From positions 18,498 to 82,497 of the forward strand of contig JAJZPQ010000008.1 in the NCBI GenBank assembly GCA_021811085.1: a DNA stretch of 64,000 nt. The letters run 5' to 3'. Below the pieces are notes generated by a model. It did not search any database and was not told the DNA's origin. It saw nothing but the letters and a program-made list of their open reading frames with translations. Position numbers and translations under genes: made by a program. Shown here one piece after another: positions 40,452 through 58,467 of the stretch. The DNA is from Pseudomonadota bacterium. Its GTDB lineage: Bacteria; Pseudomonadota; Gammaproteobacteria; Burkholderiales; SG8-39. The number at the start of each line of letters is the position of its first letter. Within the stretch, counting starts at the first letter, position 1.

Positions 40452-40456
40452 GCGCG

Positions 40457-42359: not shown

Positions 42360-42370
42360 GAGTTTGTTTG

Positions 42371-42394
42371 AGCATGAGGGGATACGCCCCTTCA
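42371..42394 (+). repeat. Copy C of the AGCATGAGGGG hairpin element
   Basis: AGCATGAGGGG-ATACG-CCCCTTCA between the dsrE3-like and second tusA-like genes. It shares an identical 11-mer with copies at 55733 (+) and 50446 (-). Confidence 0.5.
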
Positions 42395-42464
42395 CGCTCG
42401 TCTAAACCAGGGCCATTTCGGTCAAGCCGAGATGGCCTGCAAATCGAACCGAGGAGATGCAACC

Positions 42465-43904: not shown

Positions 43905-44696
43905 ATGAACACAGAAAACAAGGACCTCACCGGTACGCTGGAGGAACTCACCGGCGTCGCCACCGCCGCGCGTGACGCGATGACCGAGGACATCATCGGC
44001 CGCGTTGCCGACAGCGCCGCCGGCGCGATGGATCTGATCGACAAGGTGAACCGCAGCGGGCTGGGCAAGGCGATACCGCAGCTGGCGCAGATGGTCGAAA
44101 ACGGCGACCTGCAGCGTCTGGTCGACCTCGCGCGCGTCTACGGCTCCGCCGAGGACGCGCTGACCGAGGAAATGGTCGGCCGCATCGCTGCGGCGGCGAG
44201 CGACGGCCTGAGCCTGATGGACCAGGTCAACCGCTCCGGACTGGAAAAGGCGCTGCCGACGCTGACGCGGCTGGTCGCAGACGGCGATATGGAGCGCCTG
44301 GCGCAGCTTGCGCGCGTCTACGGCGCGGCGCAGGACGCGCTGTCCGAGGAAATCGTCGGCCGCCTGGCCGAGGCGATGAGCGAAGGCCTGTCGCTGCTGG
44401 ACCGGCTCAACCGCGGCGGCGCCGGCCGGCTGGTCGAGATGCTGGCGAAGCTGGAGGCGAGCGGGTCGCTGGAGCGCGTCGCCGCGCTGCTGCCCACGTT
44501 TGTCGACCGGCTCGACATGGTCGGCGGGCTCCTCGAGGCCATGGAATCGGCCGCGAAGCAGGCCGAGGCCGAGCGCACTCAGGGCGGTATCGTTGCCATG
44601 TACAAGATGATGACCGATCCGCGCACGCAGGAAACGCTGCGTTTCATGCTCGCGCTCGGACAGCACATGCACGAGAGCTACGCGCGCAGGACCTGA
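43905..44696 (+). CDS. DUF1641-like protein with three internal ~60-aa repeats
   Basis: 263 aa. The repeats are TEDIIGRVADSAAGAMDLIDKVNRSGLGKAIPQLAQMVENGDLQRLVDLARVYGSAEDAL / TEEMVGRIAAAASDGLSLMDQVNRSGLEKALPTLTRLVADGDMERLAQLARVYGAAQDAL / SEEIVGRLAEAMSEGLSLLDRLNRGGAGRLVEMLAKLEASGSLERVAALL. The DUF1641 assignment is from memory of its frequent pairing with SQR-like flavoproteins. Confidence 0.6.
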   Translation: MNTENKDLTGTLEELTGVATAARDAMTEDIIGRVADSAAGAMDLIDKVNRSGLGKAIPQLAQMVENGDLQRLVDLARVYGSAEDALTEEMVGRIAAAASDGLSLMDQVNRSGLEKALPTLTRLVADGDMERLAQLARVYGAAQDALSEEIVGRLAEAMSEGLSLLDRLNRGGAGRLVEMLAKLEASGSLERVAALLPTFVDRLDMVGGLLEAMESAAKQAEAERTQGGIVAMYKMMTDPRTQETLRFMLALGQHMHESYARRT

Positions 44697-44872: not shown

Positions 44873-46012
44873 ATGCGGCAACGGCTTAGCTTGTCGCGGG
44901 CGGCGCGGCTGGTCGGTGTGGCGCGCTCCGCTGCGGCGCAGGAACTCGGCGCATTCCTCGCCCGGGCGCTGCAGTCCGTGCTCGGTGAAACAGCGGCGCC
45001 AACCGCGCTTGCCGTAATGGATGATATGCTGCGCGTGATGTCTGCCCATGTCGTCGTCCATCCGAGCCGCCACGAGTTTTTCGTCGACGGCGCCGATACC
45101 ATTCTCGATGCCGCGCTGCGCTCCGGCCTCGCCCTGAACTACGGCTGCAGCAACGGCAATTGCGGCCTGTGCAAGGTGCGCGTGGTCTCCGGCCAAGTGC
45201 AGAAGGTCCGCCACCACGATTACGTGCTGAGCGAGGCGGAGCGGCAGCAGGGCTATACGCTGATGTGCTCGCATACGGCCGTTGGCGATCTGGTGATCGA
45301 AGCGCTCGAGTCCGCCGAGCCGGGGGATATTCCGGCGCAGCAGATCCCGGCGCGGGTGAAGGCGGTGCAGCCGCTCGGCGACGAGCTCATGCTGCTGCAA
45401 CTGCAGACCCCGCGCGCCAATCGCCTGCGCTTTCTGGCAGGACAGAATTTGACCCTGACCGCGGGCGAGGCCTCGGCGCAGCTGCCGATCGCGAGTTGCC
45501 CCTGCGACGACCGCAATCTGCAATTCCATGTTGCACGCAATGCGCAGGACGGTTTCGCGCAGCAAGTATTCGGATCGCTTAAGGCCGGGGACAGCGTCGC
45601 GCTGTTCGGCCCGTGGGGAGACTTCGTGCTGCGCGCGGACTCGCCGCGCCCGATTGTGTTCATCGCCTGCGACACCGGTTTTGCGCCGATCAAGAGCCTG
45701 CTCGAGCACGCGATGGCGCTGGAATCGGCCGAGCGCCTGCATCTGTACTGGCTCGCGGCGCAATCGACCGGCCATTATCTTGCCAACCTCTGCCGCTCCT
45801 GGGCCGAAGCATTGGATAATTTCACCTATGTTCCGGTCGCCGCCGAGCAATGCGACGCGCTCGAACTGGTGCGCCGCATCGGCGCCGACCACGCCGATCT
45901 GAACAGGTTCGACATCTATCTGGCAGGACCCGAGGCTTTCATCCACGCCGCCACAACGGCCCTGCGCGAGCAGGGATTTCCCGAAACGCAATTGAGCGCC
46001 GCGATCTTCTGA
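44873..46012 (+). CDS. Plant-type [2Fe-2S] ferredoxin fused to an FNR-like FAD/NAD(P)-binding reductase (AscD/Fre-like)
   Basis: ORF 44819-46012. ATG 44873 has GGAG 6 nt upstream; the alternative start ATG 45038 would remove a 55-aa N-terminal extension. 2Fe-2S motif CSNGNCGLCKVRV...LMC; FNR-like blocks RFLAGQNLTL and IVFIACDTGFAPIKSLL. Confidence 0.75.
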   Translation: MRQRLSLSRAARLVGVARSAAAQELGAFLARALQSVLGETAAPTALAVMDDMLRVMSAHVVVHPSRHEFFVDGADTILDAALRSGLALNYGCSNGNCGLCKVRVVSGQVQKVRHHDYVLSEAERQQGYTLMCSHTAVGDLVIEALESAEPGDIPAQQIPARVKAVQPLGDELMLLQLQTPRANRLRFLAGQNLTLTAGEASAQLPIASCPCDDRNLQFHVARNAQDGFAQQVFGSLKAGDSVALFGPWGDFVLRADSPRPIVFIACDTGFAPIKSLLEHAMALESAERLHLYWLAAQSTGHYLANLCRSWAEALDNFTYVPVAAEQCDALELVRRIGADHADLNRFDIYLAGPEAFIHAATTALREQGFPETQLSAAIF

Positions 46013-46014
46013 CC

Positions 46015-46242
46015 ATGCCCTATTACCTCTACAAAGTCTCCAGCTTTCCCATCCGCAGGCTGGAGAAACTCGAACAGCATGACGCTTTCCGTGACGCCTC
46101 CGCCCGGGCCAAGACTTTGCGCGCCGCGCTAAGCTCGGCCGAGCAGGGCTCGATCAAGGTGATACTCGCCGACAATGAACTGCATGCCGAAGATCTCCTT
46201 TCGCAGCAGCGCGCGCCGCAGCCCAACCCGGACGACGACTGA
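46015..46242 (+). CDS. Small hypothetical protein (75 aa)
   Basis: In-frame ATG 46015, 2 nt after the reductase stop: MPYYLYKVSSFPIRRLEKLEQHDAFRDASARAKTLRAALSSAEQGSIKVILADNELHAEDLL... I recognised no family. Confidence 0.5.
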   Translation: MPYYLYKVSSFPIRRLEKLEQHDAFRDASARAKTLRAALSSAEQGSIKVILADNELHAEDLLSQQRAPQPNPDDD

Positions 46243-46284
46243 GCGCCTGTCTACGCGCGATGCTTGCAAGCGCTAGTCCCCGGC

Positions 46285-46761
46285 ATGGATGAAGCCGCTT
46301 TCCGGCAGGCGCGGGATATGATGTCTCCGCGCCCCTGCGCGTTCGAGAAGGCGATGCTCGCCGGCGCCTGTTCCTGTGCGCTGGCCGCGCGGCGCAACAT
46401 CGCCGAGCGCGAGGCAGTGACCTGCACTTCGCCTCCGGCGCACGGGCAATGCGCGCTGTTGTGCGCCCTGTTGCGGCAGAAGTCCGCATTCGCGCTGAAA
46501 CTGGTGCGGATCGACGCGCCGCTGCCCCATGCCAAGGAGATGAAGCTGCAATGTGGGGGGCTGCGCGGCGTGCAGCAGGCGCTCGGCGCCGCGGAACTTG
46601 CATCCGCGGACGAGCTGGCGCCGGAGGGGCGAGGGCTCGATGTGCACGAGCTGGTGCTGGCGGCGCAGGAGAAATTCGGGGGCCTGCACCATCTGCCCTT
46701 CGCGCGCATAATTCAATCGGTCGTCGCCTATGAAATCCGGCGACGCCGCGCGGAGCGATGA
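46285..46761 (+). CDS. Cys-rich hypothetical protein
   Basis: ORF 46264-46761 (TTG in the track); the first ATG is 46285 (MDEAAFRQARDMMSPRPCAFEKAMLAGACSCALAARRNIAEREAVTCTSPPAHGQCALLCALL...). Seven Cys. Its stop overlaps the next start (ATGA). Confidence 0.45.
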   Translation: MDEAAFRQARDMMSPRPCAFEKAMLAGACSCALAARRNIAEREAVTCTSPPAHGQCALLCALLRQKSAFALKLVRIDAPLPHAKEMKLQCGGLRGVQQALGAAELASADELAPEGRGLDVHELVLAAQEKFGGLHHLPFARIIQSVVAYEIRRRRAER

Positions 46762-47816
46762 TGCCTTTGCCCGATTTCCCGCAACTGGTACAGAGCGTGC
46801 AGCGCAACTGCAATATTGCCGATGCGCGTCACGCGCGCGAGACGACGCTGTGCAACTACCTGTTGGAGATGCGCGAGTTCTACCGCTGGGAGCACGAAGT
46901 CCCGCTTGCGCGGCCATTGCCGCGGCAGGAACTGGGAACCTGGATTTCGGAACGCGAGGCACTGTGGGACGGGCTGCAGGCCGATGACCTGGAGCCGCTG
47001 TGCGTGGGCGAGCGCAGCTACGGCACGTTCGACGTGGCGGCCATCAACGCTGCGCTGGTACCGCAGGGCCTGGTTTACGGCGCCGGCTACGGCCGCTTCG
47101 GCAAACCGCATTTTTTTCTGGCGCAGCTGGAGCGTTGCGAGCAGCGCCAGGGGCTCACCTTGTTCGTGTCGGGCTGCGAGTATGCGCGCGATCTCACCGC
47201 TCCGCCGGCTACGCTGCTGGACAGTGCGGTGTACCTGCGCCGCGACGCGCTGCGGCGCTGGTTGTGGGACAAGATCGAAATCTGGGGTGTGCGCAAAGCT
47301 GATGGCGCGCTGAAGTCGGCGCTGGATAGCTACGGCTTTGCAGCCGATGCCGAGCATGCGGTCGAGCGCATGTCCGAACACGAGGCGGAAACGCTGATCC
47401 TGCACGAACTCGGCGAAGCCATGGCCGAGCCGCTGCTCGGGTCTGCCTGGCGGGAACTCGTCGCTTCGTTCACCGGCCGGCGCGCGGAGATCGTCGCGCG
47501 CGCCGTGCGCGACAACCTGGCCGACTGCCTCTCGACGCTGCCGCGGCTGATCGAGCGCGGCGCAGCCGGCTCGATCCACTTTTACTTCGCCAACTTCGAG
47601 GGCGTGCGCAGCAAATTGTTTCCGCTGCTGGCGCAGGCATACCGCGTCTGGCGCGATTCGGAAAATCCGGCTCCCTTGCGCGACGCGGCGCAGGCGGGCG
47701 GCACGCACTGGCATGAGGCCGCGTTGCGCCTGCTGCGCGTACGCGAAAGCGATCCAGCCGCAGCCGAGGAGACCATCGCGGCCTGGAGCGAGGATCCCGG
47801 CGGGCTCTCGCTCTGA
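46758..47816 (+). CDS. Conserved-looking hypothetical protein (352 aa)
   Basis: MMPLPDFPQLVQSVQRNCNIADARHARETTLCNYLLEMREFYRWEHEV... It is translationally coupled to the Cys-rich ORF. I could not assign a family with confidence. Confidence 0.55.
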   Translation: MMPLPDFPQLVQSVQRNCNIADARHARETTLCNYLLEMREFYRWEHEVPLARPLPRQELGTWISEREALWDGLQADDLEPLCVGERSYGTFDVAAINAALVPQGLVYGAGYGRFGKPHFFLAQLERCEQRQGLTLFVSGCEYARDLTAPPATLLDSAVYLRRDALRRWLWDKIEIWGVRKADGALKSALDSYGFAADAEHAVERMSEHEAETLILHELGEAMAEPLLGSAWRELVASFTGRRAEIVARAVRDNLADCLSTLPRLIERGAAGSIHFYFANFEGVRSKLFPLLAQAYRVWRDSENPAPLRDAAQAGGTHWHEAALRLLRVRESDPAAAEETIAAWSEDPGGLSL

Positions 47817-47840: not shown

Positions 47841-48467
47841 CTACCAGTAGGCGAGCAGGCGGCCTTTGTCCACTTTCGCTTCGAAGCGCTTCAGCGGCTG
47901 GGTTCCCTTCTTCACGCAGGCGCCGCTAGTCAGATCGAACGCCCACTTGTGCTTAGGGCAGGTCAGCTCCAGCCCCTCGAGCGCGAGGTGCGGGATGTTC
48001 GTGACCTGATGCGGGCAGCGGCTGTCGTAGACGCGATAGGTCTTGCCCTTGCGGTAGACGAACAGGCTGCGCCCGTCGCAGTCGAGCCGCGTGGCCTCAC
48101 CGTCCGTGATCTGCGCGGCCGGCGCTACGTCGTGCCAGCGCGCAGCGCTGCCGATGTTCTCGGGACGGAACTCGGGCAGGTCGAGCGCGAGAATGACGTC
48201 CACCGCCCACACGATCTTGGCCAGCCCCAGCGCCGGGAATGCCATCATCAGCGCATCGAGCACCTCCATCGGGCTCGCCCCGTCGCGCAGCGCGCGCAGC
48301 AGGTACTGGCGCAGGCCGTTTTCGGTCTGGGAGTGGACTTTGGTAATGACCGAGATCAGCGCCCGCGTCTTGGGGTCGAGATGTTTACCGGCCTCCTTGA
48401 GGAACTTGAAGTAGTGGGAGATCGCATCCGGCCGCACCTTGACCAGATAATTCAGAGCGTCGCTCAT
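47841..48467 (-). CDS. Fusion protein: carboxymuconolactone decarboxylase/AhpD-like domain + Rieske [2Fe-2S] domain
   Basis: 208 aa. The N-terminal half resembles the CMD family (DPKTRALISVITKVHSQTENGLRQYLLRAL...). The C-terminal half has the Rieske motifs CPHQ...CPKHKW. Confidence 0.72.
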   Translation of the reverse strand: MSDALNYLVKVRPDAISHYFKFLKEAGKHLDPKTRALISVITKVHSQTENGLRQYLLRALRDGASPMEVLDALMMAFPALGLAKIVWAVDVILALDLPEFRPENIGSAARWHDVAPAAQITDGEATRLDCDGRSLFVYRKGKTYRVYDSRCPHQVTNIPHLALEGLELTCPKHKWAFDLTSGACVKKGTQPLKRFEAKVDKGRLLAYW

Positions 48468-48500
48468 TGCCAGCCGCCTATATCGAGGATGTCGAGAATC

Positions 48501-49394
48501 TCATTTTACGCGCTGGTAGTAGCGCGCGCGGTAGATCAGGCGACGATGCTGCGCCGAGTCGGTGAACGGCATGCGCGTGTGCAGTACGTTGTTGCTGATG
48601 AGGCCCATGCCCGGCTCCAGCCGACCGCGCAATACCCAGGGCGAAGCGCCGCCGAGGATGTCTTCGAGTGCGGCCAGCGCCGCCTGCGTGGCCGCGTCCT
48701 GCTTCCACTCGATGCTGACTGCGCGCGCGGTGTAGCGCATGTGCAAATAGCCGCCGGCATCGATCGAAAACACGGGACCGGATTGTGCCGCCCGCTCCAC
48801 GCGGCCTTGCTCGATGCGCGCCGGAACGGTCATGGCATCGGGCGCCATCAGCGCGCGCAGGTGCTGCGGATCGCGGTCGCGCAACTGGATGTAGGCGATT
48901 TCGTGATCGAGCAGCTCGTTCTCGCCGCCGGTCTCGGCGCGCTCGACGCAGTGCAGCAGCACCGCGCGCACGGTGCGCTCGCGGGGGTTGTAGTAGCCGT
49001 CGGTATGCCACTTGATGCCGCGATTGGTATAAGGGATGAATTCGCCGCGCGTGCCGTGTTGCGCGACCGCCAGCGGCGAAATGCCGTCGTCGTCGGCCAG
49101 CAAGTTCGGATCGAGGTCGCGCAATCCGAACTGCAGGCCCAGTTGCCGCGGAATGTCCTTGTCCGGCCTGCCCCCGGTCGGACTTGCGTAGACCGCCATG
49201 TTGGCGCGCCGGCAGCGTTCGAGCAGTGCCTGCCGCTCACCCTTGCTGAGCGAGCGCGGGTCGCGCACTTCAACCACGAGCTCGGCCAGCGTTGCCGGAA
49301 AATGGGCGAGCTTTTCGGCGCGCCAGGCCAGATACGCGGCTTCGTCGGCGAGATCGAACGCCGCGCCCGCCGGCACATTCATGCGCGCGTTCAT
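48501..49394 (-). CDS. TauD/TfdA-family Fe(II)/2-oxoglutarate-dependent dioxygenase-like protein
   Basis: 297 aa with the HxD metal motif in WHTDGYY and a distal His in NNVLHTR. Its start overlaps the stop of the upstream ORF (ATGA). Confidence 0.72.
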   Translation of the reverse strand: MNARMNVPAGAAFDLADEAAYLAWRAEKLAHFPATLAELVVEVRDPRSLSKGERQALLERCRRANMAVYASPTGGRPDKDIPRQLGLQFGLRDLDPNLLADDDGISPLAVAQHGTRGEFIPYTNRGIKWHTDGYYNPRERTVRAVLLHCVERAETGGENELLDHEIAYIQLRDRDPQHLRALMAPDAMTVPARIEQGRVERAAQSGPVFSIDAGGYLHMRYTARAVSIEWKQDAATQAALAALEDILGGASPWVLRGRLEPGMGLISNNVLHTRMPFTDSAQHRRLIYRARYYQRVK

Positions 49395-49951
49395 TCGCCG
49401 ATGTGGCTCTCGCGCCGCGGCCGGTGCTCTTCGTCGGCGGGCGCGAACAGACCTTCGAGCGTGCGCTCCAGCGCCTTCACCGCTTCAGGGGCTTCGATCT
49501 CCATGATCTGATCGATCACCCAGGCATGATCCTTCTCCGGGACGATTTCCAGCAGCCGGCTGCCGAAATAGCGGCGAAAGCCGAAATCGGGGCCCTCTTT
49601 TTCGTCGTAGGCGAAATCGGCGTATTCGCCGCCGCGCTGGTTGGCGAGGTCTATGAAATGGCGGCGGCAGCGGTCGGGCTCGGGTTCGACCGGCAGCATG
49701 TCGCGGTTGTCCTCTACCACCTCCGCCAGCTTCAGTGCGAGCGCGGTGGTGAACGCGATGCGCTGGTCGGCGGCGAGTGCCCGATAGGCGATGCGGTCGG
49801 CCGCGTGCAGCATGAACGCGAGGTACTCGCACACGAAATCGAAGTACTGCGTGCCGACGTCGATGTCGAATTGCGCCGCGCGCATGCGCCGGATCGCATC
49901 CTGCGACAGCTTCCAGCCGAGCATGGCGATGACGCTGGCCAGCTCGGGCAT
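49391..49951 (-). CDS. Hypothetical protein (186 aa; up to 203 aa if the start is 50002)
   Basis: ORF 49391-50002; the candidate start is ATG 49951 (MPELASVIAMLGWKLSQDAIRRMRAAQFDIDVGTQYFDFVCEYLAF...). I recognised no family. Confidence 0.5.
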   Translation of the reverse strand: MPELASVIAMLGWKLSQDAIRRMRAAQFDIDVGTQYFDFVCEYLAFMLHAADRIAYRALAADQRIAFTTALALKLAEVVEDNRDMLPVEPEPDRCRRHFIDLANQRGGEYADFAYDEKEGPDFGFRRYFGSRLLEIVPEKDHAWVIDQIMEIEAPEAVKALERTLEGLFAPADEEHRPRRESHIGE

Positions 49952-50028
49952 GGTGCGTTCGCCTGCTCCCCGGTGGAAGCGGCTGCGGATGCGGATGGCC
50001 AAGGTGCCCTGCTAGCGGGTGCGGCGCA

Positions 50029-50358
50029 CTAATATCCGCCCTTGCCGAACGGTTTGGGCAGGCCTGCGACGCGCGCGCCCTGTTTGGCCGGTCCGAGCGG
50101 GAACAGATCATATAGCGCCTTGCTGTCGCAGCCCGGCATCAGGTCGGCGATATCTTTGAGCATGTTGCGGAAATTCGGCGTCTGGCCGTGCTCTTTATAC
50201 TGGTCGCGCAGGTATTGCACGACTTTCCAGTGATCGTCGTTCAGCGTGATGCCTTCGGCCTGCGCGATAACGCGCACGGTCTCTTCGCTGTATTCGGGCG
50301 CGAGCAGATAGCCTTCCGCATCGGTTTCCAGTTCCGCGCCGTTCACCACATAAGCCAT
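50029..50358 (-). CDS. DsrC/TusE-fold protein lacking both conserved C-terminal cysteines
   Basis: 109 aa with DsrC-family blocks (LNDDHWKVVQYLRDQYKEHGQTPNFRNMLK, LFPLGPAKQGARVAGLPKP). It ends ...FGKGGY, so both CysA and CysB are absent. Confidence 0.8.
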   Translation of the reverse strand: MAYVVNGAELETDAEGYLLAPEYSEETVRVIAQAEGITLNDDHWKVVQYLRDQYKEHGQTPNFRNMLKDIADLMPGCDSKALYDLFPLGPAKQGARVAGLPKPFGKGGY

Positions 50359-50413
50359 GTTGCGATCCTCCGTTGCTGGTCAGTCGGCCGGTTCCCCCGA
50401 CCTCCAGGAGCTT

Positions 50414-50446
50414 ATTTCGAAACGAGGGGATCTATCCCCTCATGCT
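50414..50446 (-). repeat. Copy B of the AGCATGAGGGG hairpin element
   Basis: The minus-strand reading is AGCATGAGGGGATAGATCCCCTCGTTTCGAAAT, with stem GAGGGGAT/ATCCCCTC. It begins 4 nt after the tandem-TusA stop. Confidence 0.5.
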
Positions 50447-50450
50447 CCCG

Positions 50451-50945
50451 CTAAGTCTTGCGAATGAAGAACTCGTAGGTCCCCGGTGCCACTTCCTGCT
50501 TGGCGAGCAACTGGAGACCGGTCGATTTCACCCATGAATTGACGTCGTCGGGCGAGCCGGGGCAGTTGCTCATCAGGAGCAGGATTTCCCCCGCTTTCAT
50601 TCCGTCGAGCAACTTTTTGGCCTCGATGATCGGCCCGGGACAGCTGACACCGCGTATGTCCAGCCTCACATTGGCCACCGGACGTTTCGCGCCGCTGCCG
50701 CGTTTGATCGTGTATGCCACCCTGCGTCCGCCCAGCCGGTCGGTGCCGATCACCTCGTTGCCGGTGTGGCGGCTCCACGCGAACAGGTCGTCGGGCGTAC
50801 CCGGACAGTCCGATATCAGCTGCATCACCTGCCCCGGCTGCAGATCGTCGATCACATGCTTCGCGCCGAGCAGCGGCGCCGGGCAATTCAGCCCGCACAA
50901 ATCCAGCGTGACCAGGGGTTTGTCTGAATTCCTTTCCGCGCTCAT
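50451..50945 (-). CDS. Protein with two tandem TusA-like domains
   Basis: ORF 50451-50996; the likely start is ATG 50945 (MSAERNSDKPLVTLDLCGLNCPAPLLGAKHVI...). The second domain is VRLDIRGVSCPGPIIEAKKLL. Both domains keep the CPxP cysteine. Confidence 0.8.
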   Translation of the reverse strand: MSAERNSDKPLVTLDLCGLNCPAPLLGAKHVIDDLQPGQVMQLISDCPGTPDDLFAWSRHTGNEVIGTDRLGGRRVAYTIKRGSGAKRPVANVRLDIRGVSCPGPIIEAKKLLDGMKAGEILLLMSNCPGSPDDVNSWVKSTGLQLLAKQEVAPGTYEFFIRKT

Positions 50946-50995
50946 GGCAATTCCTCTCGCTTGTGCGAACGTTCCCGCGTTGAACCGCGCGCCCA

Positions 50996-51589
50996 TCAGG
51001 AGCCTACTGCTGCGGCCGATTTGTGCGGAACGAAAATTCCGCAGCCGTACTTGCGTCCGTTGCCCAGTCCCGACGCCTGCATCCTGAGCGAATCCTCGGG
51101 CGAGAGCTCATGCAGCATCAGGCTGAAACCGACGATCTCCGCTCCTTGTGTCTGCGCGCGGCGCATGTTGCCGCAAACCACCTTGCATCCTACGCTGGCG
51201 CTTTGCAGCTCTGCGCTGACGTCGCGCTGGAACCGAGCCTCATCCGGCGTCGCCGTCGTGACGAACTGCGAATACAGGGTGCCGTGGGCAAACAACGGCC
51301 GCACCTGCGCACTGCCTACCTCGACGCTGTCGCCCAGATCGAGGCGCGCGCCCGAGAGCGCAAACGACTGTTCCACCCGCTTGCGCGGCAAGCGCAGCAT
51401 GAGCCGCGCGCGGGTGCCGAGGTGGACCTCGCCTGCGACCGCGCGCGCGCCGCGGATCGGGTGTACGCCGGCGTCGGGCTCAGCCGCGAGCCAGTCGAGC
51501 CGTTCGCTCAGAAGCCGGAACAGATTCCAGCCGTGATCCGCGGGTATGCTACCACCGCGCAGCGCAAACGCCACATCGACCATGTCCAT
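50996..51589 (-). CDS. Cas6/Cmx6-like RAMP-fold protein (orphan; no CRISPR context)
   Basis: 197 aa. The C-terminal glycine-rich loop GLGNGRKYGCG fits G-h-G-x5-G-h-G of Cas6-type RAMPs. The N-terminus MDMVDVAFALRGGSIPADHGWNLF resembles my memory of the type I-MYXAN Cas6/Cmx6 family. This needs HMM or structural confirmation. Confidence 0.55.
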   Translation of the reverse strand: MDMVDVAFALRGGSIPADHGWNLFRLLSERLDWLAAEPDAGVHPIRGARAVAGEVHLGTRARLMLRLPRKRVEQSFALSGARLDLGDSVEVGSAQVRPLFAHGTLYSQFVTTATPDEARFQRDVSAELQSASVGCKVVCGNMRRAQTQGAEIVGFSLMLHELSPEDSLRMQASGLGNGRKYGCGIFVPHKSAAAVGS

Positions 51590-51592
51590 CTG

Positions 51593-51811
51593 TCAGCTGT
51601 TCTCCTGCGTCTGGGACCAGGCGAGCATCGCCTGCCCCCAGCGCGCAGCGGTATCCGGATCGATCTCGAAAATGGTAAAACGGGCGCCGCGCTCGCGGAT
51701 CCGCAGGCGCAACAGCGGCATGCCCCCGGACTCGTATTCGACCTGCACCAATTCCACCTGCTGGCCTCCGAACGGGCAGGTGAACTTGTCCAGACTCCGG
51801 GTCGTGTCCAT
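51593..51811 (-). CDS. Small hypothetical protein (72 aa), translationally coupled to the Cas6-like gene
   Basis: MDTTRSLDKFTCPFGGQQVELVQVEYESGGMPLLRLRIRERGARFTIFEIDPDTAARWGQAMLAWSQTQENS. GGAG lies 8 nt upstream of the ATG. Its stop is 3 nt before the next start. Confidence 0.5.
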   Translation of the reverse strand: MDTTRSLDKFTCPFGGQQVELVQVEYESGGMPLLRLRIRERGARFTIFEIDPDTAARWGQAMLAWSQTQENS

Positions 51812-52046
51812 GCCATGCGCTCCGCTCGATGCTGGCAGGCACTATCGCACCCGGCGCATGCCATGCAAATCACCGACTTGGATAAGGTGCGGATACTCCC
51901 TTCGGGTAGGTGCAGCATTACCCGTGAGAGTGTGCACGCCCCCCTGCACGAGTAATGGTTGAGCAGGGCGGCGCCATTTAGTATCGTCAAAAAAAAGGCG
52001 CTCCTAAGCCGAGCAAATTGCTTTTTTCCTGAATGGAGGAACACAG

Positions 52047-53342
52047 ATGGCGAAAAAACCGCATGACACGCCCAACCTGGACGCGCTCGAATCAGGCCCG
52101 TGGCCGAGTTTCGTTACCGGTCTCAAGCGTCTGGCCAAGGACAAAGACTCCGTAGTCGACCTCCTCGGTCATCTGGAACATTCGTATGCGACGAGAAAGG
52201 GTTATTGGAAAGGCGGAACGCTAGGCGTCTACGGCTATGGCGGCGGCGTCATCCCGCGCTTTACCGAGATCAAGGACGAGAACGGCAAGCCGGTGTTCCC
52301 GGACGCGGCGGAATTCCATACTCTGCGCGTCATGCCGCCCGCAGGCATGCATTACAGCACCGACATCCTGCGCAAGCTCGCAGACATCTGGGAACGGCAC
52401 GGTTCCGGGCTGATCGCCTTCCATGGCCAGTCGGGCGACATCATGTTCCAGGGCGCGACCAGCGAGAACGTACAGAAGGCCTTCGACGAGATCAACGAAG
52501 CCGGCTTCGACCTCGGCGGAGCGGGCCCCGCGCTGCGCACCTCCATGTCCTGCGTCGGCGCGGCGCGCTGCGAGCAGTCCTGCTACGACGAGGGCAAGGC
52601 GCATCGCATGGTGATCAACAGCTTCCTCGACGACATCCACCGTCCGGCGCTGCCGTACAAGTTCAAGTTCAAGTTCTCGGGCTGCCCCAACGACTGCATG
52701 AACTCGATCCAGCGCTCCGATCTGGCAGTCATCGGCACCTGGCGCGACAACATACGCACCGACGAGGCGCTGGCGAAGAAGTGGTTTGCCAAGCACGGCA
52801 TGAACGAGCTCGTGAACGACGTGGTCGCGCACTGCCCGACCAGGGCAATCCAGCTGAAAGAAATCAAGGAAGTGCGCAAGGACGCCGCCGTGTCTGCGGT
52901 CGCGGTGAACGACACGCACGCCCTGGAGATCGACAACCGCGACTGCGTGCGCTGCATGCACTGCATCAACGTGATGACCGGTGCGCTGGCGCCGGGCAAG
53001 GACAAGGGCGCGACGATCCTCTGCGGCGGCAAGCGCACGCTGAAGATCGGCGACCAGATGGGCACCGTGGTGGTGCCGTTCCAGCCGCTGCAGAACGAAG
53101 AAGATTACGAGCAGATCGTCGAACTGGGGCAGAAGATCATCGACTTCTTCGCCGAGAACGCGCTCGAACACGAGCGCACCGGCGAGATGATCGAACGTAT
53201 CGGTCTGGCCAACTTCCTCGAGGGGATCGGCCTCGACGTGGACGCCAACATGGTGAAAGCGCCGCGCTCCAACCCGTACGTCCGCACCGATGGCTGGGAC
53301 GAGGAAGTGGCCAAGATCAAGGCCAAGAAGGCAGCCGCCTAG
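52047..53342 (+). CDS. dsrA: Dissimilatory sulfite reductase alpha subunit (oxidative/reverse type context)
   Basis: 431 aa: GPWPSFVTGLKRLA..., the siroheme/FeS motif region SMSCVGAARCEQSC, CPNDC, and a ferredoxin insert CVRCMHC. RBS GGAGG. It is followed by dsrB and dsrEFH. Confidence 0.95.
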   Translation: MAKKPHDTPNLDALESGPWPSFVTGLKRLAKDKDSVVDLLGHLEHSYATRKGYWKGGTLGVYGYGGGVIPRFTEIKDENGKPVFPDAAEFHTLRVMPPAGMHYSTDILRKLADIWERHGSGLIAFHGQSGDIMFQGATSENVQKAFDEINEAGFDLGGAGPALRTSMSCVGAARCEQSCYDEGKAHRMVINSFLDDIHRPALPYKFKFKFSGCPNDCMNSIQRSDLAVIGTWRDNIRTDEALAKKWFAKHGMNELVNDVVAHCPTRAIQLKEIKEVRKDAAVSAVAVNDTHALEIDNRDCVRCMHCINVMTGALAPGKDKGATILCGGKRTLKIGDQMGTVVVPFQPLQNEEDYEQIVELGQKIIDFFAENALEHERTGEMIERIGLANFLEGIGLDVDANMVKAPRSNPYVRTDGWDEEVAKIKAKKAAA

Positions 53343-53377
53343 AGTCGGCCCACCTACAGCATGCCTGGAGATAAATA

Positions 53378-54460
53378 ATGGCTGAACCACAAAAGCAGAT
53401 GCGCAAGCCCAAGGAAACCGGGGTTCCGGACAACAAGCAATACATGCATCCGACCCTGGTGAAGAATCACGGCAACTGGAAATACCACGACCGGCCGCGC
53501 CCCGGCGTGCTGCACCACGTGTCGCACTCGGGGGACCAGGTGTGGACGGTGCGCGCAGGCACGCAGCGCCAGATGGATGTGCACACCATCAGGAAGCTGT
53601 GCGACATCGGCGATCAATACGCCGAGGGTCACGTGCGCTTTACCATCCGCTCCAACATCGAGTTCATGGTCGCCGACGAGAAAAAAGTTGCGCCCCTGAT
53701 CGAGACGCTGGAGAAAAACGGCTTTCCGGTGGGCGGCACCGGCAACTCGGTGTCGATGATGGCGCACACGCAGGGCTGGCTGCACTGCGACATCCCCGGC
53801 ACCGACGCCTCGGGCGTGGTGAAGGCGCTGATGGACGAACTGTACGACGAGTTCAGGCGCGAGGAAATGCCCAACCGCGTGCACATGTCGACCTCCTGCT
53901 GCGAGATCAACTGCGGCGGCCAGGCGGACATCGCCATTATCGTGCAGTACACCAAGCCGCCCAAGATCAACCACGATCTGGTCGCGAACGTGTGCGAGCG
54001 GCCGTCGGTCGTGGCGCGCTGCCCGGTGGCGGCGATCCGGCCGGCGCTGGTGAACGGCAAGCCTTCGCTCGAGATCGACGAGAAGAAATGCATGTGCTGC
54101 GGCGCCTGTTATCCGCCGTGCCCGCCGATGCAGATCAACGATCCCGAGCACACCAAGCTCGCGATCTGGGTGGGCGGCAAGAACTCCAACGCCCGCGGCA
54201 GGCCGACGTTCATGAAAATGGTCGCTTCCGGACTGCCGAACAACCCGCCGCGCTGGCCCGAAGTGGCCGCCGTGGTGAAGAAGATTCTGCACGTCTACAA
54301 GGAGGACGCGCGCTCGTGGGAACGCCTGTCCGACTGGGTCGAGCGCATCGGCTGGCCGCGCTTTTTCGAGAAGACCGGGCTGACGTTCACCAAGTATCTG
54401 ATTGACGACTGGCGCGGCAGCCGCGCCAATCTGAACGCGTCGACGCATATCAGGTTCTAG
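53378..54460 (+). CDS. dsrB: Dissimilatory sulfite reductase beta subunit
   Basis: 360 aa: HGNWKYHDRPRPGVLHHVS..., CCEINCGGQ, and a ferredoxin domain CMCCGACYPPCP. Confidence 0.95.
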   Translation: MAEPQKQMRKPKETGVPDNKQYMHPTLVKNHGNWKYHDRPRPGVLHHVSHSGDQVWTVRAGTQRQMDVHTIRKLCDIGDQYAEGHVRFTIRSNIEFMVADEKKVAPLIETLEKNGFPVGGTGNSVSMMAHTQGWLHCDIPGTDASGVVKALMDELYDEFRREEMPNRVHMSTSCCEINCGGQADIAIIVQYTKPPKINHDLVANVCERPSVVARCPVAAIRPALVNGKPSLEIDEKKCMCCGACYPPCPPMQINDPEHTKLAIWVGGKNSNARGRPTFMKMVASGLPNNPPRWPEVAAVVKKILHVYKEDARSWERLSDWVERIGWPRFFEKTGLTFTKYLIDDWRGSRANLNASTHIRF

Positions 54461-54484
54461 GAGAAAAGTGAACAAGGGGACCTG

Positions 54485-54549
54485 GGGAAGGGGTGGGACC
54501 CTTCCCTTCCCACCCGGGGCCACTTGTCCCGCGAGGGGACTTCCCCGCG
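54485..54549 (+). promoter_or_regulatory. Two GC-rich hairpins in the 147-nt dsrB-dsrE spacer
   Basis: GGGAAGGG-GTGGGA-CCCTTCCC (54485-54506) and CGCGAGGGGA-CT-TCCCCGCG with one bulge (54530-54549). Confidence 0.4.
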
Positions 54550-54607
54550 ACGGTGATCGAGACCTGCAAGGTCGAGATCCCACAAATCGGAGTTGCAGAA
54601 AGAAACT

Positions 54608-54967
54608 ATGAATATCGGCATCCTGGTGAACGAAGGTCCGTACACGCATGAGGCTTCGGACAGCGCCTACCAGTTCTGCAAGGCGGCGCTGGCGGCGGGG
54701 CACCAGATTCAGCGTGTGTTCTTCTATCACGACGGTGTTAACAACGCGAGCCGGCTGACCGAGCCGCCGCAGGACGACCGTAACATCGTCAACCGCTGGT
54801 CCAAGCTTGCTACCGATCACAAGGTCGATCTGGTGGTGTGCGTGGCAGCGGCGTTGCGGCGCGGCATCAAGGACGAGAATCTGGCGCCGGGCTTCCGCAT
54901 TTCGGGCCTGGGCCAGCTGATCGAGTCGAGTATCCAGGCCGACCGACTGGTTACCTTCGGCGACTGA
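54608..54967 (+). CDS. dsrE: Sulfurtransferase DsrE
   Basis: ATG 54608 within ORF 54593-54967. MNIGILVNEGPYTHEASDSAYQFCKAALAAGHQIQRVFFYHDGVNN...VVCVAAALRRG... closely parallels Allochromatium DsrE, including the active-site Cys. Confidence 0.92.
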   Translation: MNIGILVNEGPYTHEASDSAYQFCKAALAAGHQIQRVFFYHDGVNNASRLTEPPQDDRNIVNRWSKLATDHKVDLVVCVAAALRRGIKDENLAPGFRISGLGQLIESSIQADRLVTFGD

Positions 54968-54990
54968 CATACCTGGGGAGGCAAAGCGCA

Positions 54991-55362
54991 GTGGGAGAGG
55001 GTACCGTAAAGAAGATCATGTACGTGAACCGCAAGGCTCCGTACGGAACGATCTACGCGCTGGAATCGCTGGAGGTGGTGTTGATTGCCGCCGCGTTCGA
55101 CCAGGACGTAAGCCTGGTGTTCATGGACGACGGTGTGTACCAGCTGAAGAAGGGTCACCAGACCAAGGGCATCGAGGTGAAGAACTTCCAGCCCACCTAC
55201 CGCGCGCTCGACGACTACGACGTCAACAAGCTGTACGTGGAAAAGGAGGCGCTGGAAGCGCGCGGCCTGTCGGAAGCGGACATGTGCGTGCCGGTGGAAG
55301 TGAAGAGCGCGGCCGAGATCGGCAAGCTCATGGAAGAGCAGGATGTGCTGCTGAGCTTTTAA
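54991..55362 (+). CDS. dsrF: Sulfurtransferase complex subunit DsrF
   Basis: In-frame GTG 54991 after GGGGAGG (the alternative is ATG 55018). ...VKKIMYVNRKAPYGTIYALESLEVVLIAAAFDQDVSLVFMDDGVYQL. Confidence 0.85.
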   Translation: MGEGTVKKIMYVNRKAPYGTIYALESLEVVLIAAAFDQDVSLVFMDDGVYQLKKGHQTKGIEVKNFQPTYRALDDYDVNKLYVEKEALEARGLSEADMCVPVEVKSAAEIGKLMEEQDVLLSF

Positions 55363-55376
55363 GGAATAGGAGACCT

Positions 55377-55676
55377 ATGCTGCATATCGTCAACAAGTCG
55401 CCGCTGGAGCGCAACACCCTGGATAGCTGTCTCGCGGCGGCGCAGTCCGGCGCGGCGGTACTGCTGATCGAGGACGGGGTGTATGCCGCGACGCGCGGCA
55501 ACGCGGCCGAGAGCAAGCTGCGCTCGGCCTCCGAGCGGCTGGAAATTTATGTGCTTGCGCCGGATCTGGAGGCGCGCGGCATGGGGGCATCGCTGACCGA
55601 GGGTGTGAAGCCGGTCGATTACGCCGGGTTTGTCGATTTGGTGGTGAAGCACAAGAATTGCCAGTCTTGGCTGTAA
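55377..55676 (+). CDS. dsrH: Sulfurtransferase complex subunit DsrH
   Basis: ATG 55377 within ORF 55284-55676. MLHIVNKSPLERNTLDSCLAAAQSGAAVLLIEDGVYAA...VDYAGFVDLVVKHKNCQSWL. Confidence 0.88.
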   Translation: MLHIVNKSPLERNTLDSCLAAAQSGAAVLLIEDGVYAATRGNAAESKLRSASERLEIYVLAPDLEARGMGASLTEGVKPVDYAGFVDLVVKHKNCQSWL

Positions 55677-55732
55677 TCGGAGCCAATCTGGACCGCGATA
55701 GCGCAGTTGACGCGAGCGGGTGGGGTTGGGGA

Positions 55733-55765
55733 AGCATGAGGGGCACCATCCCCTCATTTTGAAAC
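55733..55765 (+). repeat. Copy A of the AGCATGAGGGG hairpin element (dsrH-dsrC spacer)
   Basis: AGCATGAGGGGCACCATCCCCTCATTTTGAAAC, with stem ATGAGGGG/CCCCTCAT (55736-55757) followed by TTTT. It ends 18 nt before the dsrC ATG. A TTGACG hexamer lies at 55707-55712. Confidence 0.5.
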
Positions 55766-55783
55766 GAGTTCAAAGGAGCGCAT

Positions 55784-56119
55784 ATGGCTGCTATCGACGT
55801 AAACGGCAAGAGCTACGAGGTCGACGAAGAGGGGTATCTGGTCAACCTGGCCGAATGGGACGAGGACGTGGGCAAGGTCCTCGCCGAAGGCGAGAAAATC
55901 GAAATGACACCGAACCACTGGGAAGTCGTCAACTTTCTGCGCGATTATTACAACGAGTTCCAGATCGCTCCGGCGGTGCGCGTGCTCACCAAGGCAATCG
56001 GCAAGAAGCTTGGACCGGAAAAAGGAAACAGCCAGTACCTGTACGAATTGTTTCCCTATGGCCCGGCAAAGCAGGCGTGCAAGATCGCCGGCTTGCCCAA
56101 GCCGACCGGCTGCATTTAG
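55784..56119 (+). CDS. dsrC: DsrC, bona fide (both C-terminal cysteines present)
   Basis: 111 aa: ...LFPYGPAKQACKIAGLPKPTGCI, with CysB at residue 99 and CysA at residue 110 (C-x10-C). Confidence 0.95.
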   Translation: MAAIDVNGKSYEVDEEGYLVNLAEWDEDVGKVLAEGEKIEMTPNHWEVVNFLRDYYNEFQIAPAVRVLTKAIGKKLGPEKGNSQYLYELFPYGPAKQACKIAGLPKPTGCI

Positions 56120-56951: not shown

Positions 56952-58442
56952 ATGGCCGCCACCGTTACTGCGCCGCCGCTGAAACCCTATCCCGTCATCC
57001 CTATCCTCGAAGTCGGGGCGATGGGGAAGACCAAGACGTTTCCGGCGAACGCGCCGATGCAGCAGGCGCTCGGCTTTCCCGGTGAGCTGGTCGAAGACTG
57101 GCATGACAAGGCGATCTTCAAGCTGGGTGAGCTGCTGGGAAAATACCGCTCGCTCAAAGTCTATCTGGACGCGTGCGTGCACTGCGGCGCCTGCACCGAC
57201 AAATGCCATTATTTCCTCGGCACGGGCGATCCGAAGAACATGCCGGTGGCGCGCCAGGATCTGCTGCGCAAGGTTTATCGCCGCCATTTCACCTGGTCGG
57301 GGAAATGGTTTCCGAAGCTGGTCGGCGCAGAGGACCTCACCAAGGAGGTGCTCGACGACTGGTATTCCTATTTCAACCAGTGCTCGGAATGCCGTCGTTG
57401 CTCGGTGTTTTGCCCCTACGGCATCGACACGGCCGAAATCACCATGGCGGCGAGAGAGATCATGGACTCGATCGGCCTGGGGGCGAAATATACCAACGAG
57501 ATCATCGGCAAGGTGCACAAGGTCGGCAACAATCTCGGGCTTCCCGGCCCGGCGCTCGCCGACACGCTGTCCAGCATCGAGGAAGATCTCAAGGAAGAAA
57601 CGGGGCTGGACATACGCCTTCCGGTCGACGAGAAAGGCGCCGAGGTGCTGCTGGTGACGCCGTCGGCCGATTTTTTCGCCGAGCCGCACGTCTACAGCCT
57701 CATGGGCTACGCCAAGGTGTTCCACGCGGCCGGCATTTCCTGGACGCTCTCAACCCATGCCTCGGAGGCGGGCAACTTCGGCCTGTTCATCGGAAATTAC
57801 GGCCAGATGCAGAAGATCGCGACGCGCGTGCGCGAAGGCATCCTGGATCTGGGCGCAAAACGGCTGGTGGTGGGCGAGTGCGGCCACGCTTGGCGCGTAG
57901 CCTACAACTTCTGGAACACGCTGATCGGCCCGTTCGATTTTCTCGACCCGAATTATCCGGTGCCGCAGCACATCTGCGAGCTGACCTACGACCTGATCCA
58001 GCGCGGCGCGATCAGCTTCGACAAGAGCGCGAACGACCGCTACGTGGTCACGTTCCACGATTCCTGCAACGTCGCGCGCGCCTCGCGCATGGGCGGCATG
58101 CCGGGCGGCCAGTTCGAAATCCCGCGCGCCATCGTGCGCGCCGTCGCCAACAAGTTCGTCGAGATGAACCCGGAGACCATACGCGAAAAGACGTTCTGCT
58201 GCGGCGGCGGCGGCGGCCTGCTCACCGACGACCTGCTCGACCTGCGCGTGAAGGGAGCACTGCCGCGCATGGAGGCGTTGCAGGCAGTGGTCGAGTCCGA
58301 CGGCGTGAACTTCATGGCGACCATCTGCGCCATCTGCAAGGCGCAGTTCAGCAAGGTGTTGCCGTACTACAAATTCAATATGAGCATGGTGGGCGGTGTG
58401 CACCAGCTGGTGGGCAACGCGATCCGGCTCGGGCCCAAGTAA
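56952..58442 (+). CDS. dsrK: DsrK, HdrD-like CCG-domain iron-sulfur protein
   Basis: 496 aa with FeS motifs CVHCGACTDKC and CSECRRCSVFCP, and CCG motifs (TFCCGGGGG). It starts 1 nt after the dsrM stop. Confidence 0.9.
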   Translation: MAATVTAPPLKPYPVIPILEVGAMGKTKTFPANAPMQQALGFPGELVEDWHDKAIFKLGELLGKYRSLKVYLDACVHCGACTDKCHYFLGTGDPKNMPVARQDLLRKVYRRHFTWSGKWFPKLVGAEDLTKEVLDDWYSYFNQCSECRRCSVFCPYGIDTAEITMAAREIMDSIGLGAKYTNEIIGKVHKVGNNLGLPGPALADTLSSIEEDLKEETGLDIRLPVDEKGAEVLLVTPSADFFAEPHVYSLMGYAKVFHAAGISWTLSTHASEAGNFGLFIGNYGQMQKIATRVREGILDLGAKRLVVGECGHAWRVAYNFWNTLIGPFDFLDPNYPVPQHICELTYDLIQRGAISFDKSANDRYVVTFHDSCNVARASRMGGMPGGQFEIPRAIVRAVANKFVEMNPETIREKTFCCGGGGGLLTDDLLDLRVKGALPRMEALQAVVESDGVNFMATICAICKAQFSKVLPYYKFNMSMVGGVHQLVGNAIRLGPK

Positions 58443-58467
58443 TAAAGCACTTTTGAGGAGACCAAAC

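Follow-up and report, generated by a model that had tools for sequence, protein, structure and literature searches.

A dsrA-linked gene module with a Cas6 homologue and a cysteine-free DsrC paralogue: a putative Dsr accessory operon of betaproteobacterial sulfur oxidizers

A seven-gene cluster divergent from dsrA

We analysed a stretch of 64,000 nucleotides (positions 18,498 to 82,497 of contig JAJZPQ010000008.1, here called the window) from an uncultured betaproteobacterium with a GC content of about 65%. Seven minus-strand open reading frames (ORFs), g1 to g7, lie head to head with dsrA, the first gene of an oxidative-type dsr operon, and the comparisons below make it very likely that they constitute a Dsr accessory operon of betaproteobacterial sulfur oxidizers. 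In our view the most unusual point is that the cluster includes a conserved Cas6 homologue that works outside any CRISPR (clustered regularly interspaced short palindromic repeats) system. The genes and their immediate surroundings are as follows (aa, amino acids).

51593..51811, minus strand: g1, DUF6967 protein of 72 aa, first gene of the putative operon (Pfam PF22295, 95 bits)
50996..51589, minus strand: g2, orphan Cas6/Cmx6 homologue (PF09559, 181 bits; TIGR02807 cas6_cmx6, 153 bits)
50451..50996, minus strand: g3, tandem TusA protein with two PF01206 domains (181 aa from ATG 50996 or 164 aa from ATG 50945)
50029..50358, minus strand: g4, DsrC/TusE-fold paralogue of the RspA type (PF04358, 112 bits; TIGR03342, 96 bits)
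49391..50002, minus strand: g5, predicted six-helix bundle of 203 aa without a family match
48501..49394, minus strand: g6, Fe(II)/2-oxoglutarate (2OG) dioxygenase of the TauD/TfdA superfamily (PF02668, 69 bits; motif WHTDGYY)
47841..48467, minus strand: g7, fusion of a CMD/AhpD-like domain (28 bits) to a Rieske [2Fe-2S] ferredoxin (PF00355, 53 bits)
51812..52046, no strand: divergent control region between dsrA and g1, with a palindrome and a putative g1 promoter
52047..56119, plus strand: dsrABEFHC ORFs, start of the oxidative-type dsr operon and constant neighbour of the module

An initial interpretation made from the letters of the window (the sequence-only reading) had placed the seven ORFs at these positions, and they were confirmed there; with dsrA starting at ATG 52047 and g1 at ATG 51811, the divergent spacer is 235 bp long, as had been stated. 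The domains that it had named (Cas6, two TusA, a DsrC fold, TauD and CMD-Rieske) were judged against the curated cut-offs of the Pfam and NCBIfam hidden Markov models (HMMs), and all of them pass. Two gene starts were revised. Moving the start of g5 to TTG 50002 adds 17 N-terminal residues (MAIRIRS...) that are conserved and that begin with an ATG in two of the comparison loci, which we number with the prefix L (L016 and L017); judging from this alignment, TTG 50002 is almost certainly the true start, and it shortens the gap between g4 and g5 from 77 to 26 nt. Upstream of the earlier start of g3, a 53-nt segment varies 14, 24 and 51 times at codon positions 1, 2 and 3, respectively, across 16 species. 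This excess of third-position changes makes ATG 50996 the probable start of g3; the gene would then overlap the stop codon of the Cas6-like gene, and the supposed 50-nt gap between g2 and g3 would be coding; one species has an in-frame stop in the extension and another is missing the ATG. The tight packing described at the outset thus stands, with these two gaps corrected. Only 3 nt separate g1 from g2, and the stop of g5 overlaps the start of g6 (ATGA). Since the spacers are short or overlapping and no terminator-like sites were found in the cluster, we infer that the seven genes form an operon.

The module is linked to dsrA across Betaproteobacteria

A scan of one genome per species yielded 16 species-level Burkholderiales loci from metagenome-assembled genomes (MAGs). 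By tblastn, every locus of sufficient length has g1 to g7 in this order and in divergent orientation to dsrA, apart from L009, which lacks g1 and g4, and L020 (Cas6 43% identical), which lacks g4 and g7. The module adjoins dsrA divergently in 15 of the 16 genomes, and L016 has no upstream flank. Finding the same gene order beside dsrA in every sufficiently long related locus argues that the arrangement is not due to chance. The g5 family comprises 311 clusters at 50% identity, and a search with a profile of its more remote members revealed another seven lineages (L143, L145, L147 and L149 to L152), among them MAGs of Polaromonas sp., Gallionella sp. and Betaproteobacteria RBG_16_56_24. All seven carry dsrBA followed divergently by genes for DUF6967, the Cas6-like protein, the DsrC-like protein, the tandem TusA protein in some, g5 and, in most, the TauD-like protein, with spacers of 1-37 nt or overlaps. 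The genes beyond the far side of the module differ between lineages, and therefore the link is to dsr itself. The co-conservation with dsr on which the sequence-only reading depended is borne out by both sets of genomes.

The recurrent core consists of DUF6967, the Cas6-fold protein, the cysteine-free DsrC paralogue and g5, with the TauD-like gene usually present. This core is non-catalytic, and the TauD-like, TusA-TusA, Rieske and FNR-like proteins are variable additions to it. The tandem TusA gene is absent from L143, L145 and L149 and was not called in L151, and it stands after the DsrC-like gene in L147, L150 and L152. A TauD-like gene is missing in L147 and fragmented in L151. The CMD-Rieske gene occurs in the loci of the window's own clade (group A) and is absent from L020 and from the distant lineages, which also lack a DUF6866 gene found near the module in the window. 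The idea that all seven genes serve a single pathway therefore gives way to a core with lineage-specific additions. Losses affect the core as well. L009 (Hainich H52 bin064, 1363-2838) has lost DUF6967 and the DsrC-like protein and has kept the Cas6-like protein, TusA-TusA, g5 and TauD, and in L020 the DsrC-like gene is missing (11113-11213); the make-up of the module is accordingly flexible. Apparent fusions of the DsrC-like protein with g5 (P0362 and P0331) were considered as Rosetta-stone evidence and discarded, their sequences showing frameshift artefacts.

A conserved control region between dsrA and the module

The spacer between dsrA and g1 contains strongly conserved blocks in 14 species (alignment A2). 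An imperfect palindrome, TACCCGAAGGGAGTA, lies at 51894-51908 and occurs once in the window. The corresponding form TA(A)CCC-N3-4-GGG..TA is present at the equivalent place in 11 of 11 lineages from several families (the window, L013, L019, L020, L143, L145, L147, L149, L150, L151 and L152), with changes on both arms in L147 (ACTC/GAGT). Downstream of the palindrome, a conserved (C/G)ATAG(T/A) box is compatible with a −10 element for the module. On the basis of conservation, the putative g1 promoter would consist of TTGCAT (51868-51863), a 16-nt spacer and GATAGT (51846-51841); a promoter consensus scan of the region detected none. Because the intergenic region is conserved and its palindrome recurs in all 11 lineages, joint control of dsr and the module is suggested.

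The palindrome presumably resembles operators of the CsoR/CstR type. A CsoR/RcnR-family gene (PF02583) encoding a protein with two cysteines was seen in L151 (14669-14959, minus strand), beside tusA, dsrE2 and rhodanese genes and 8 kb from dsrA, and its product is a candidate persulfide-sensing repressor for the palindrome. In the window and the remaining loci compared, no such gene could be detected.

A Cas6 homologue outside a CRISPR system

The product of g2 falls within curated Cas6 models, scoring far above the cut-offs of PF09559 (26.7 bits) and TIGR02807 (98.85 bits) and matching Cas6 in PADLOC with E 1e-53. Its sole PDB sequence match (phmmer) was 8fcj_B, the Cas6 of a type I-B CRISPR-associated transposon (CAST; E 1e-17). 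An AlphaFold2 (AF2) model with pLDDT 77 had Cas6 proteins as all of its top Foldseek matches, with 8fcu_B at E 2e-15 and TMq 0.65, and further matches to 5yi6, 3qjj, 3pkm, 4c9d, 2y9h, TtCas6, PfCas6 and Cse3. The model, these matches and the alignment agree on a Cas6 fold of two ferredoxin-like domains of the RNA recognition motif (RRM) type and a C-terminal glycine-rich loop, GLGxxRxxGCGxFxP, which is invariant, genuine Cmx6 included (alignment A5). A search at E <= 1e-5 recovered more than 1000 relatives, of which the best 120 have identities of 74-100%; where an organism is named for these, it is an uncultured Betaproteobacteria, Burkholderiales or Pseudomonadota MAG. In more than 23 lineages the gene is full-length and intact, always at the same position beside DUF6967 and dsrA.

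CRISPR arrays were found neither in the window, which also gave no tRNA and no Rfam match, nor in 20 related loci. As a positive control, the type I-MYXAN locus of Synechocystis PCC 6714 plasmid pSYLB (L021) gave a full cas operon and a 12-repeat array. When the Synechocystis I-MYXAN set (cas3, cmx8, cas7, cas5, cas4/1 and cas2, with cas6) was compared by tblastn with 387 kb, Cas6 was the only protein recovered, and PADLOC likewise recognised Cas6 and none of its neighbours. Compared with Cas6/Cmx6 of type I-MYXAN (I-B-like) systems such as that of pSYLB and with the CAST Cas6 (8fcj/8fcu), g2 shares the two-RRM fold and the G-rich loop but is only 23-32% identical, has neither an array nor cas3, cmx8, cas7, cas5, cas1 or cas2, and is always paired with DUF6967 and dsrA. 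The catalytic residue of Cas6 is usually a His in the N-terminal domain. In other dsr-linked orthologues, Tyr, Leu or Val stand in place of the candidates in g2, His19 and His43, and true Cmx6 has no counterpart of His43. The dsr-linked proteins have isoelectric points (pI) of 5.3-8.6, as against 9.3-9.4 in true Cmx6. The unconserved histidines and the lost basic pI fit a change of function. We therefore regard g2 as a probable case of exaptation, a Cas6 that no longer serves a CRISPR system and for which nuclease activity, and possibly RNA binding, is uncertain. The sequence-only reading had named the protein without singling out this aspect.

Of the seven distant lineages, six show an overlap between the DUF6967 and Cas6-like genes, of 14 nt in L152 and of 4-8 nt in the others. 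Because the two would be translationally coupled in most lineages, their products probably form a complex. DUF6967 proteins share the conserved motif GGMxLLRxRIRE..RFTxFxID (alignment A7), and a profile search against the PDB gave no match.

Another Cas6/Cmx6 homologue with no cas genes nearby was seen on the Gloeobacter morelensis plasmid pGMOR1 (L022, 11974-15237), where it adjoins two genes of the PAPS-reductase family, a cupin gene and DNA methyltransferase genes. This locus may represent a second, independent use of Cmx6 outside CRISPR.

Hairpins near the Cas6-like gene are dispersed repeats

In many group-A species, hairpins that follow the pattern GGGGAGCAYGAGGGGA-N4-TCCCCTC-RTATTGAAAY stand immediately 5' of dsrC, dsrH and the Cas6-like and DsrC-like genes, in sense orientation, and one of them falls within the cluster itself.

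50408..50454, minus strand: REP-like (repetitive extragenic palindromic) hairpin element in the spacer between g3 and g4 (GAGCATGAGGGGA-TAGA-TCCCCTC...), a dispersed repeat

In the window the sites are 5' of dsrC (55726-55771, plus strand) and in the 92-nt spacer between g3 and g4; in nine species a copy stands between g1 and g2, and in others 5' of dsrH. We considered these hairpins as Cas6 sites, similar to CRISPR repeats and confined to dsr and module transcripts, and rejected them. An exact-pattern scan found the pattern in at least 120 stretches of metagenome contigs with a GC content of about 0.64, with cluster genes at one of the 80 listed loci. Both orientations are represented (antisense at 42359-42438 in the window and in L005), Rfam gave no similarity of the hairpin to CRISPR direct repeats, a genuine I-MYXAN repeat looks different, and the 1-37 nt spacers of the distant lineages hold no such hairpin. 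The hairpins are thus dispersed REP-like repeats and not specific to the operon.

The repeat is a composite, roughly 80 nt in length, that carries two hairpins, GGCCATTTCGG..CCGAAATGGCC followed by GAGGGGA-N4-TCCCCTC and ATTGAAAY, and that has entered various intergenic spacers. Copies of the composite were recorded at 42359-42438 (minus strand), 50408-50454 (minus strand) and 55726-55771 (plus strand), between g1 and g2 in L005-L015, and 5' of dsrC and dsrH. Many species retain the copy immediately 5' of dsrC, which might influence the stability of dsrC mRNA.

The DsrC paralogue, the tandem TusA protein and g5

The product of g4 is 44% identical to the DsrC encoded in the window, has a pI of 4.5-4.9 and is 64-71% identical between families. 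Its C-terminal tail is KQGARVAGLPKPFGKGGY (...LPKPFGKGGY), compared with KQACKIAGLPKPTGCI in the window's DsrC. DsrC proteins have two cysteines in the C-terminal arm, with CysA penultimate; in g4 and all of its orthologues both CysA and CysB are absent, and the proteins end in ...LPxPxGKGGY, two residues beyond the DsrC tail (alignment A6). Nor is g4 a TusE, as it lacks a C-terminal cysteine and scores 88 bits with NF008562, for which the cut-off is 191. The class that it fits is the cysteine-free RspA type, a DsrC fold without redox cysteines, with a TIGR03342 score that exceeds the cut-off of 53.5 bits; the family names DsrC, TusE and RspA follow PMC8477390, and a regulatory role of the RspA class is a proposal. 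Within this family g4 shares the PF04358 fold and the ...AGLPxPxG arm and differs by the missing CysA and CysB and by its GKGGY tail. The sequence-only reading had suggested that proteins of this kind pass persulfide sulfur, but without a C-terminal cysteine g4 cannot do so in the manner of DsrC or TusE.

Both domains of g3 have the TusA CPxP cysteine (CPAP and CPGP), and it is conserved in the orthologues (alignment A9). Relative to the rhd-tusA-dsrE2 and TusA-DsrEFH-DsrC relays, g3 shares this active cysteine and the genomic context, but it is a two-domain tandem and is dispensable in several module-bearing lineages. It also differs by an extra (D/N)CPG cysteine in each domain. This conserved residue, within an S(D/N)CPG motif, was seen in both domains of g3 and of its orthologues in L020, L147 and L150, and it is missing from the window's two single-domain TusA proteins.

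For g5, searches of Pfam, NCBIfam and PADLOC gave no match. An AF2 model (pLDDT 79) predicts a six-helix bundle, for which no PDB fold matched better than E 0.08, and a profile search against the PDB returned nothing credible. The description of g5 as a protein of no assigned family, made at the outset, thus holds after HMM and structure searches, with its start corrected as given above. It is present in every lineage examined.

The TauD-like enzyme and redox proteins

The residues H130-x-D132, H272 and R285/R289 of g6 are invariant in five lineages (alignment A8), as in Fe(II)/2OG dioxygenases, the role of Arg being assigned from its position. At the equivalog level no assignment was reached, as the TmpA, TMLD and BBOX models gave 32-37 bits against cut-offs of 268-415. 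The PDB sequence match was 6npb (E 6e-7). These matches would place g6 nearest to the TmpA/BBOX/TMLH branch, and remotely so. It shares with TauD/TfdA dioxygenases (the nearest being TmpA and the gamma-butyrobetaine and trimethyllysine hydroxylases) the HxD...H triad, the distal Arg and a score above the Pfam cut-off, and it differs in its N-terminal ~95 residues, which are unique, and in its apparent translational coupling to g5.

In g7 the Rieske ligands CPH...CPKH are present, and this part has its closest likeness in the ferredoxin components of naphthalene and carbazole dioxygenases. Residues 19-91, which make up the CMD domain, include no Cys and hence no catalytic CxxC; the score of the domain (28 bits, cut-off 23) places it at the level of the fold family. 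Three-component Rieske oxygenases (naphthalene dioxygenase ferredoxin, CarAc, BenC) likewise have a Rieske CxH...CxxH domain and a Fer2-FAD-NAD reductase, both of which are encoded near here. They differ from the present set in that an alpha subunit is absent here, a Cys-free CMD domain is joined to the Rieske domain in one protein and the genes occur in some lineages only.

A possible modulator of Dsr and alternative explanations

How the module acts on Dsr can be proposed more tentatively than that it does. The explanation that we favour, although we hold it at less than even confidence, is a co-regulated module that has the DsrC paralogue at its centre and serves Dsr as an accessory or modulator; its mechanism, docking and partner relationships are deduced from the features described above. 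The module shares a bidirectional control region with dsrA and would probably be co-expressed with it. The DsrC paralogue could serve as a hub, in that it keeps the DsrC fold and flexible C-terminal arm and has GKGGY in place of the two redox cysteines; having none of these, it cannot carry sulfur. The GKGGY arm could dock at sites that normally receive the DsrC arm (on DsrAB, DsrEFH or DsrK), and docking would modulate or gate the Dsr reaction. The tandem TusA protein would link the module to the persulfide pool, and the O2/2OG-dependent TauD-like enzyme, with the Rieske and FNR-like carriers where present, would link it to the oxygen or redox state. The Cas6-fold protein might act as an RNA-binding factor or scaffold. 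DsrD offers an analogy: in sulfate reducers this small protein, which is non-catalytic and has its gene beside dsrAB, activates DsrAB allosterically (PMC8794893). It belongs to reductive systems, has a winged-helix fold and shows no homology to the module proteins, and the analogy is purely functional.

Several points weigh against a module centred on the DsrC paralogue. This protein is missing in L009 and L020 and is therefore not an indispensable hub everywhere. The proposal leaves DUF6967, g5 and the Cas6-fold protein essentially without a defined role, and no module protein is an obvious DNA binder for the palindrome. The TauD-like, Rieske and FNR-like enzymes could equally mean small-molecule chemistry. 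The sole relevant transcriptome paper found (on ES-1) reports dsr genes and does not list their neighbours. In Sideroxydans lithotrophicus ES-1, dsrA is Slit_1686 (PMC8788666).

An extra sulfur relay, in which the tandem TusA protein passes persulfide via module proteins to DsrEFH, DsrC or DsrAB, is rather unlikely. The CPxP cysteine and the additional conserved cysteine in each TusA domain would suit such a relay, and tusA, dsrE2 and rhodanese genes abound nearby. Yet the tandem TusA gene is one of the variable additions, lacking or uncalled in four of the distant lineages, the DsrC paralogue has no C-terminal cysteine, and the Cas6-like protein, DUF6967 and g5 have no invariant cysteine that would suggest sulfur transfer.

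It is doubtful that the module works through RNA, with the Cas6-derived protein and DUF6967 binding or cleaving a hairpin in dsr or module transcripts, for instance 5' of dsrC, and thereby setting the stoichiometry or stability of dsr mRNAs, so that a domesticated Cas6 would serve as a processing factor for the operon. The Cas6 fold and the G-rich RNA-binding loop are conserved even when compared with true Cmx6, the sense hairpins of many group-A species stand 5' of the very genes concerned, and there is a precedent in the A. vinosum dsr operon, which is controlled post-transcriptionally with the involvement of DsrR and DsrS. The hairpin, however, is the dispersed REP-like repeat described above, with antisense copies, no counterpart shared by the short spacers of distant lineages and no likeness to a genuine I-MYXAN repeat; the candidate catalytic histidines are unconserved, and the proteins, being near-neutral or acidic, lack the basic charge of true Cmx6. 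A bolder combination, also doubtful, is that a Cas6 domesticated outside CRISPR immunity, as a dedicated part of energy metabolism, forms with DUF6967 an RNA-binding or RNA-processing factor or ribonucleoprotein that controls the reverse-Dsr operon, together with a Cys-free GKGGY DsrC decoy that gates DsrAB in response to persulfide and O2. If true, the recruitment of a Cas protein to the regulation of dissimilatory metabolism would here have its first natural example.

Protein modification appears improbable. Here the TauD-like hydroxylase would modify Lys or Tyr of the GKGGY tail, or g5, and so produce an O2-dependent switch or a matured carrier. The invariance of GKGGY would fit, as would the translational coupling of g5 and the TauD-like gene, their position adjoining g4, and a full set of Fe/2OG ligands in a protein whose closest families are TmpA, TMLD and BBOX and whose nearest characterised relatives act on trimethyl-lysine-type substrates. 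But GKGGY is likewise unchanged in L147, where a TauD-like gene is missing, and in L151, whose copy is fragmented; the likeness to TMLD and BBOX is weak, and we know of no precedent.

The organosulfur branch that the sequence-only reading had put forward is very unlikely, and it is the variable gene content that counts most strongly against it. In such a branch the TauD-like enzyme, with the Rieske and FNR-like carriers, would use O2 to free sulfite from a sulfonated small molecule for SoeABC. The membership of g6 in the TauD superfamily, the Rieske ferredoxin and BenC-like reductase nearby, and soeABC 6 kb away would be in keeping with this. The Rieske gene, however, is found in one clade only and TauD is absent in one lineage, g6 scores below the cut-offs of all sulfonate-specific families and is nearest TmpA/BBOX, no transporter or sulfonate-specific gene is present, and the recurrent core is non-enzymatic. 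That the Cas6 gene is a decaying CRISPR-Cas remnant among neighbours assembled by chance, as public pipelines might suggest by annotating it as type I-MYXAN Cas6/Cmx6, is extremely improbable and contradicted by synteny, since the gene is intact, keeps its motifs and its constant place beside DUF6967 and dsrA in more than 23 lineages, and has no array or other cas genes nearby.

The oxidative Dsr pathway ranks among the major routes by which sulfur is oxidized in groundwater, soils and sediments. Accessory proteins of the pathway continue to be discovered, and DsrD and DsrL have been understood only recently. The module described here is always attached to dsrA across a broad set of Betaproteobacteria, its proteins occur in hundreds of metagenome protein clusters, and it has apparently not been studied. 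It supplies concrete new candidates for the control or support of DsrAB and a clean example of a Cas6 homologue under selection without a CRISPR system, which bears on the exaptation of Cas proteins and on annotation, as pipelines label these genes CRISPR-associated. The statement in the sequence-only reading that no described pathway combines these parts agrees with our literature searches, which returned nothing relevant: this was so for the searchable literature on Cmx6, DUF6967, DUF6866, Cas6 with dsr and orphan Cas6, and locus-tag searches for the neighbours of dsrA in Thiobacillus and Sideroxydans also found nothing.

Neighbouring genes

To the left of g7, genes on the plus strand converge on the module. 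They comprise soeABC (36781-41401), tusA, dsrE2, a second tusA, a Pyr_redox_2 flavoprotein gene and a gene for a 263-aa protein, followed further along the same strand by a set that includes the BenC-like Fer2-FAD-NAD (FNR-like) reductase referred to above.

44873..47816, plus strand: convergent set, comprising the FNR-like reductase (44873-46012), a 75-aa protein (46015-46242), a 147-aa protein (46318-46761) and a DUF6866/Sfum_1244-family protein (46758-47816)

The module is thus placed between soeABC-tusA-dsrE2 and dsr, in a core island for cytoplasmic sulfur oxidation. The convergent set is syntenic in group-A loci. In L143 and L149 the FNR-like and 75-aa genes come directly after the TauD-like gene on the same strand, joined in L143 by the 147-aa gene, and L151 has a Fer2/FAD gene call at the position equivalent to the FNR-like gene. 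The 147-aa protein is Cys-rich (7 Cys, pI 9.2), and neither it nor the 75-aa protein has a family match. The presence of their homologues after the TauD-like and FNR-like genes in L143 and L149 suggests that the two proteins may belong to the module.

The 263-aa ORF (43905-44696, plus strand) has no family match and lies between the Pyr_redox_2 flavoprotein and FNR-like reductase genes. It contains a 180-bp tandem repeat (44034-44414; 2.1 copies, 78% identical) that corresponds to an internal protein repeat of 60 residues. On the other side of the module, two consecutive plus-strand ORFs of 671 and 652 aa (58396-60411 and 60487-62445) follow dsrK where one dsrL is expected, and they may represent a duplicated dsrL.

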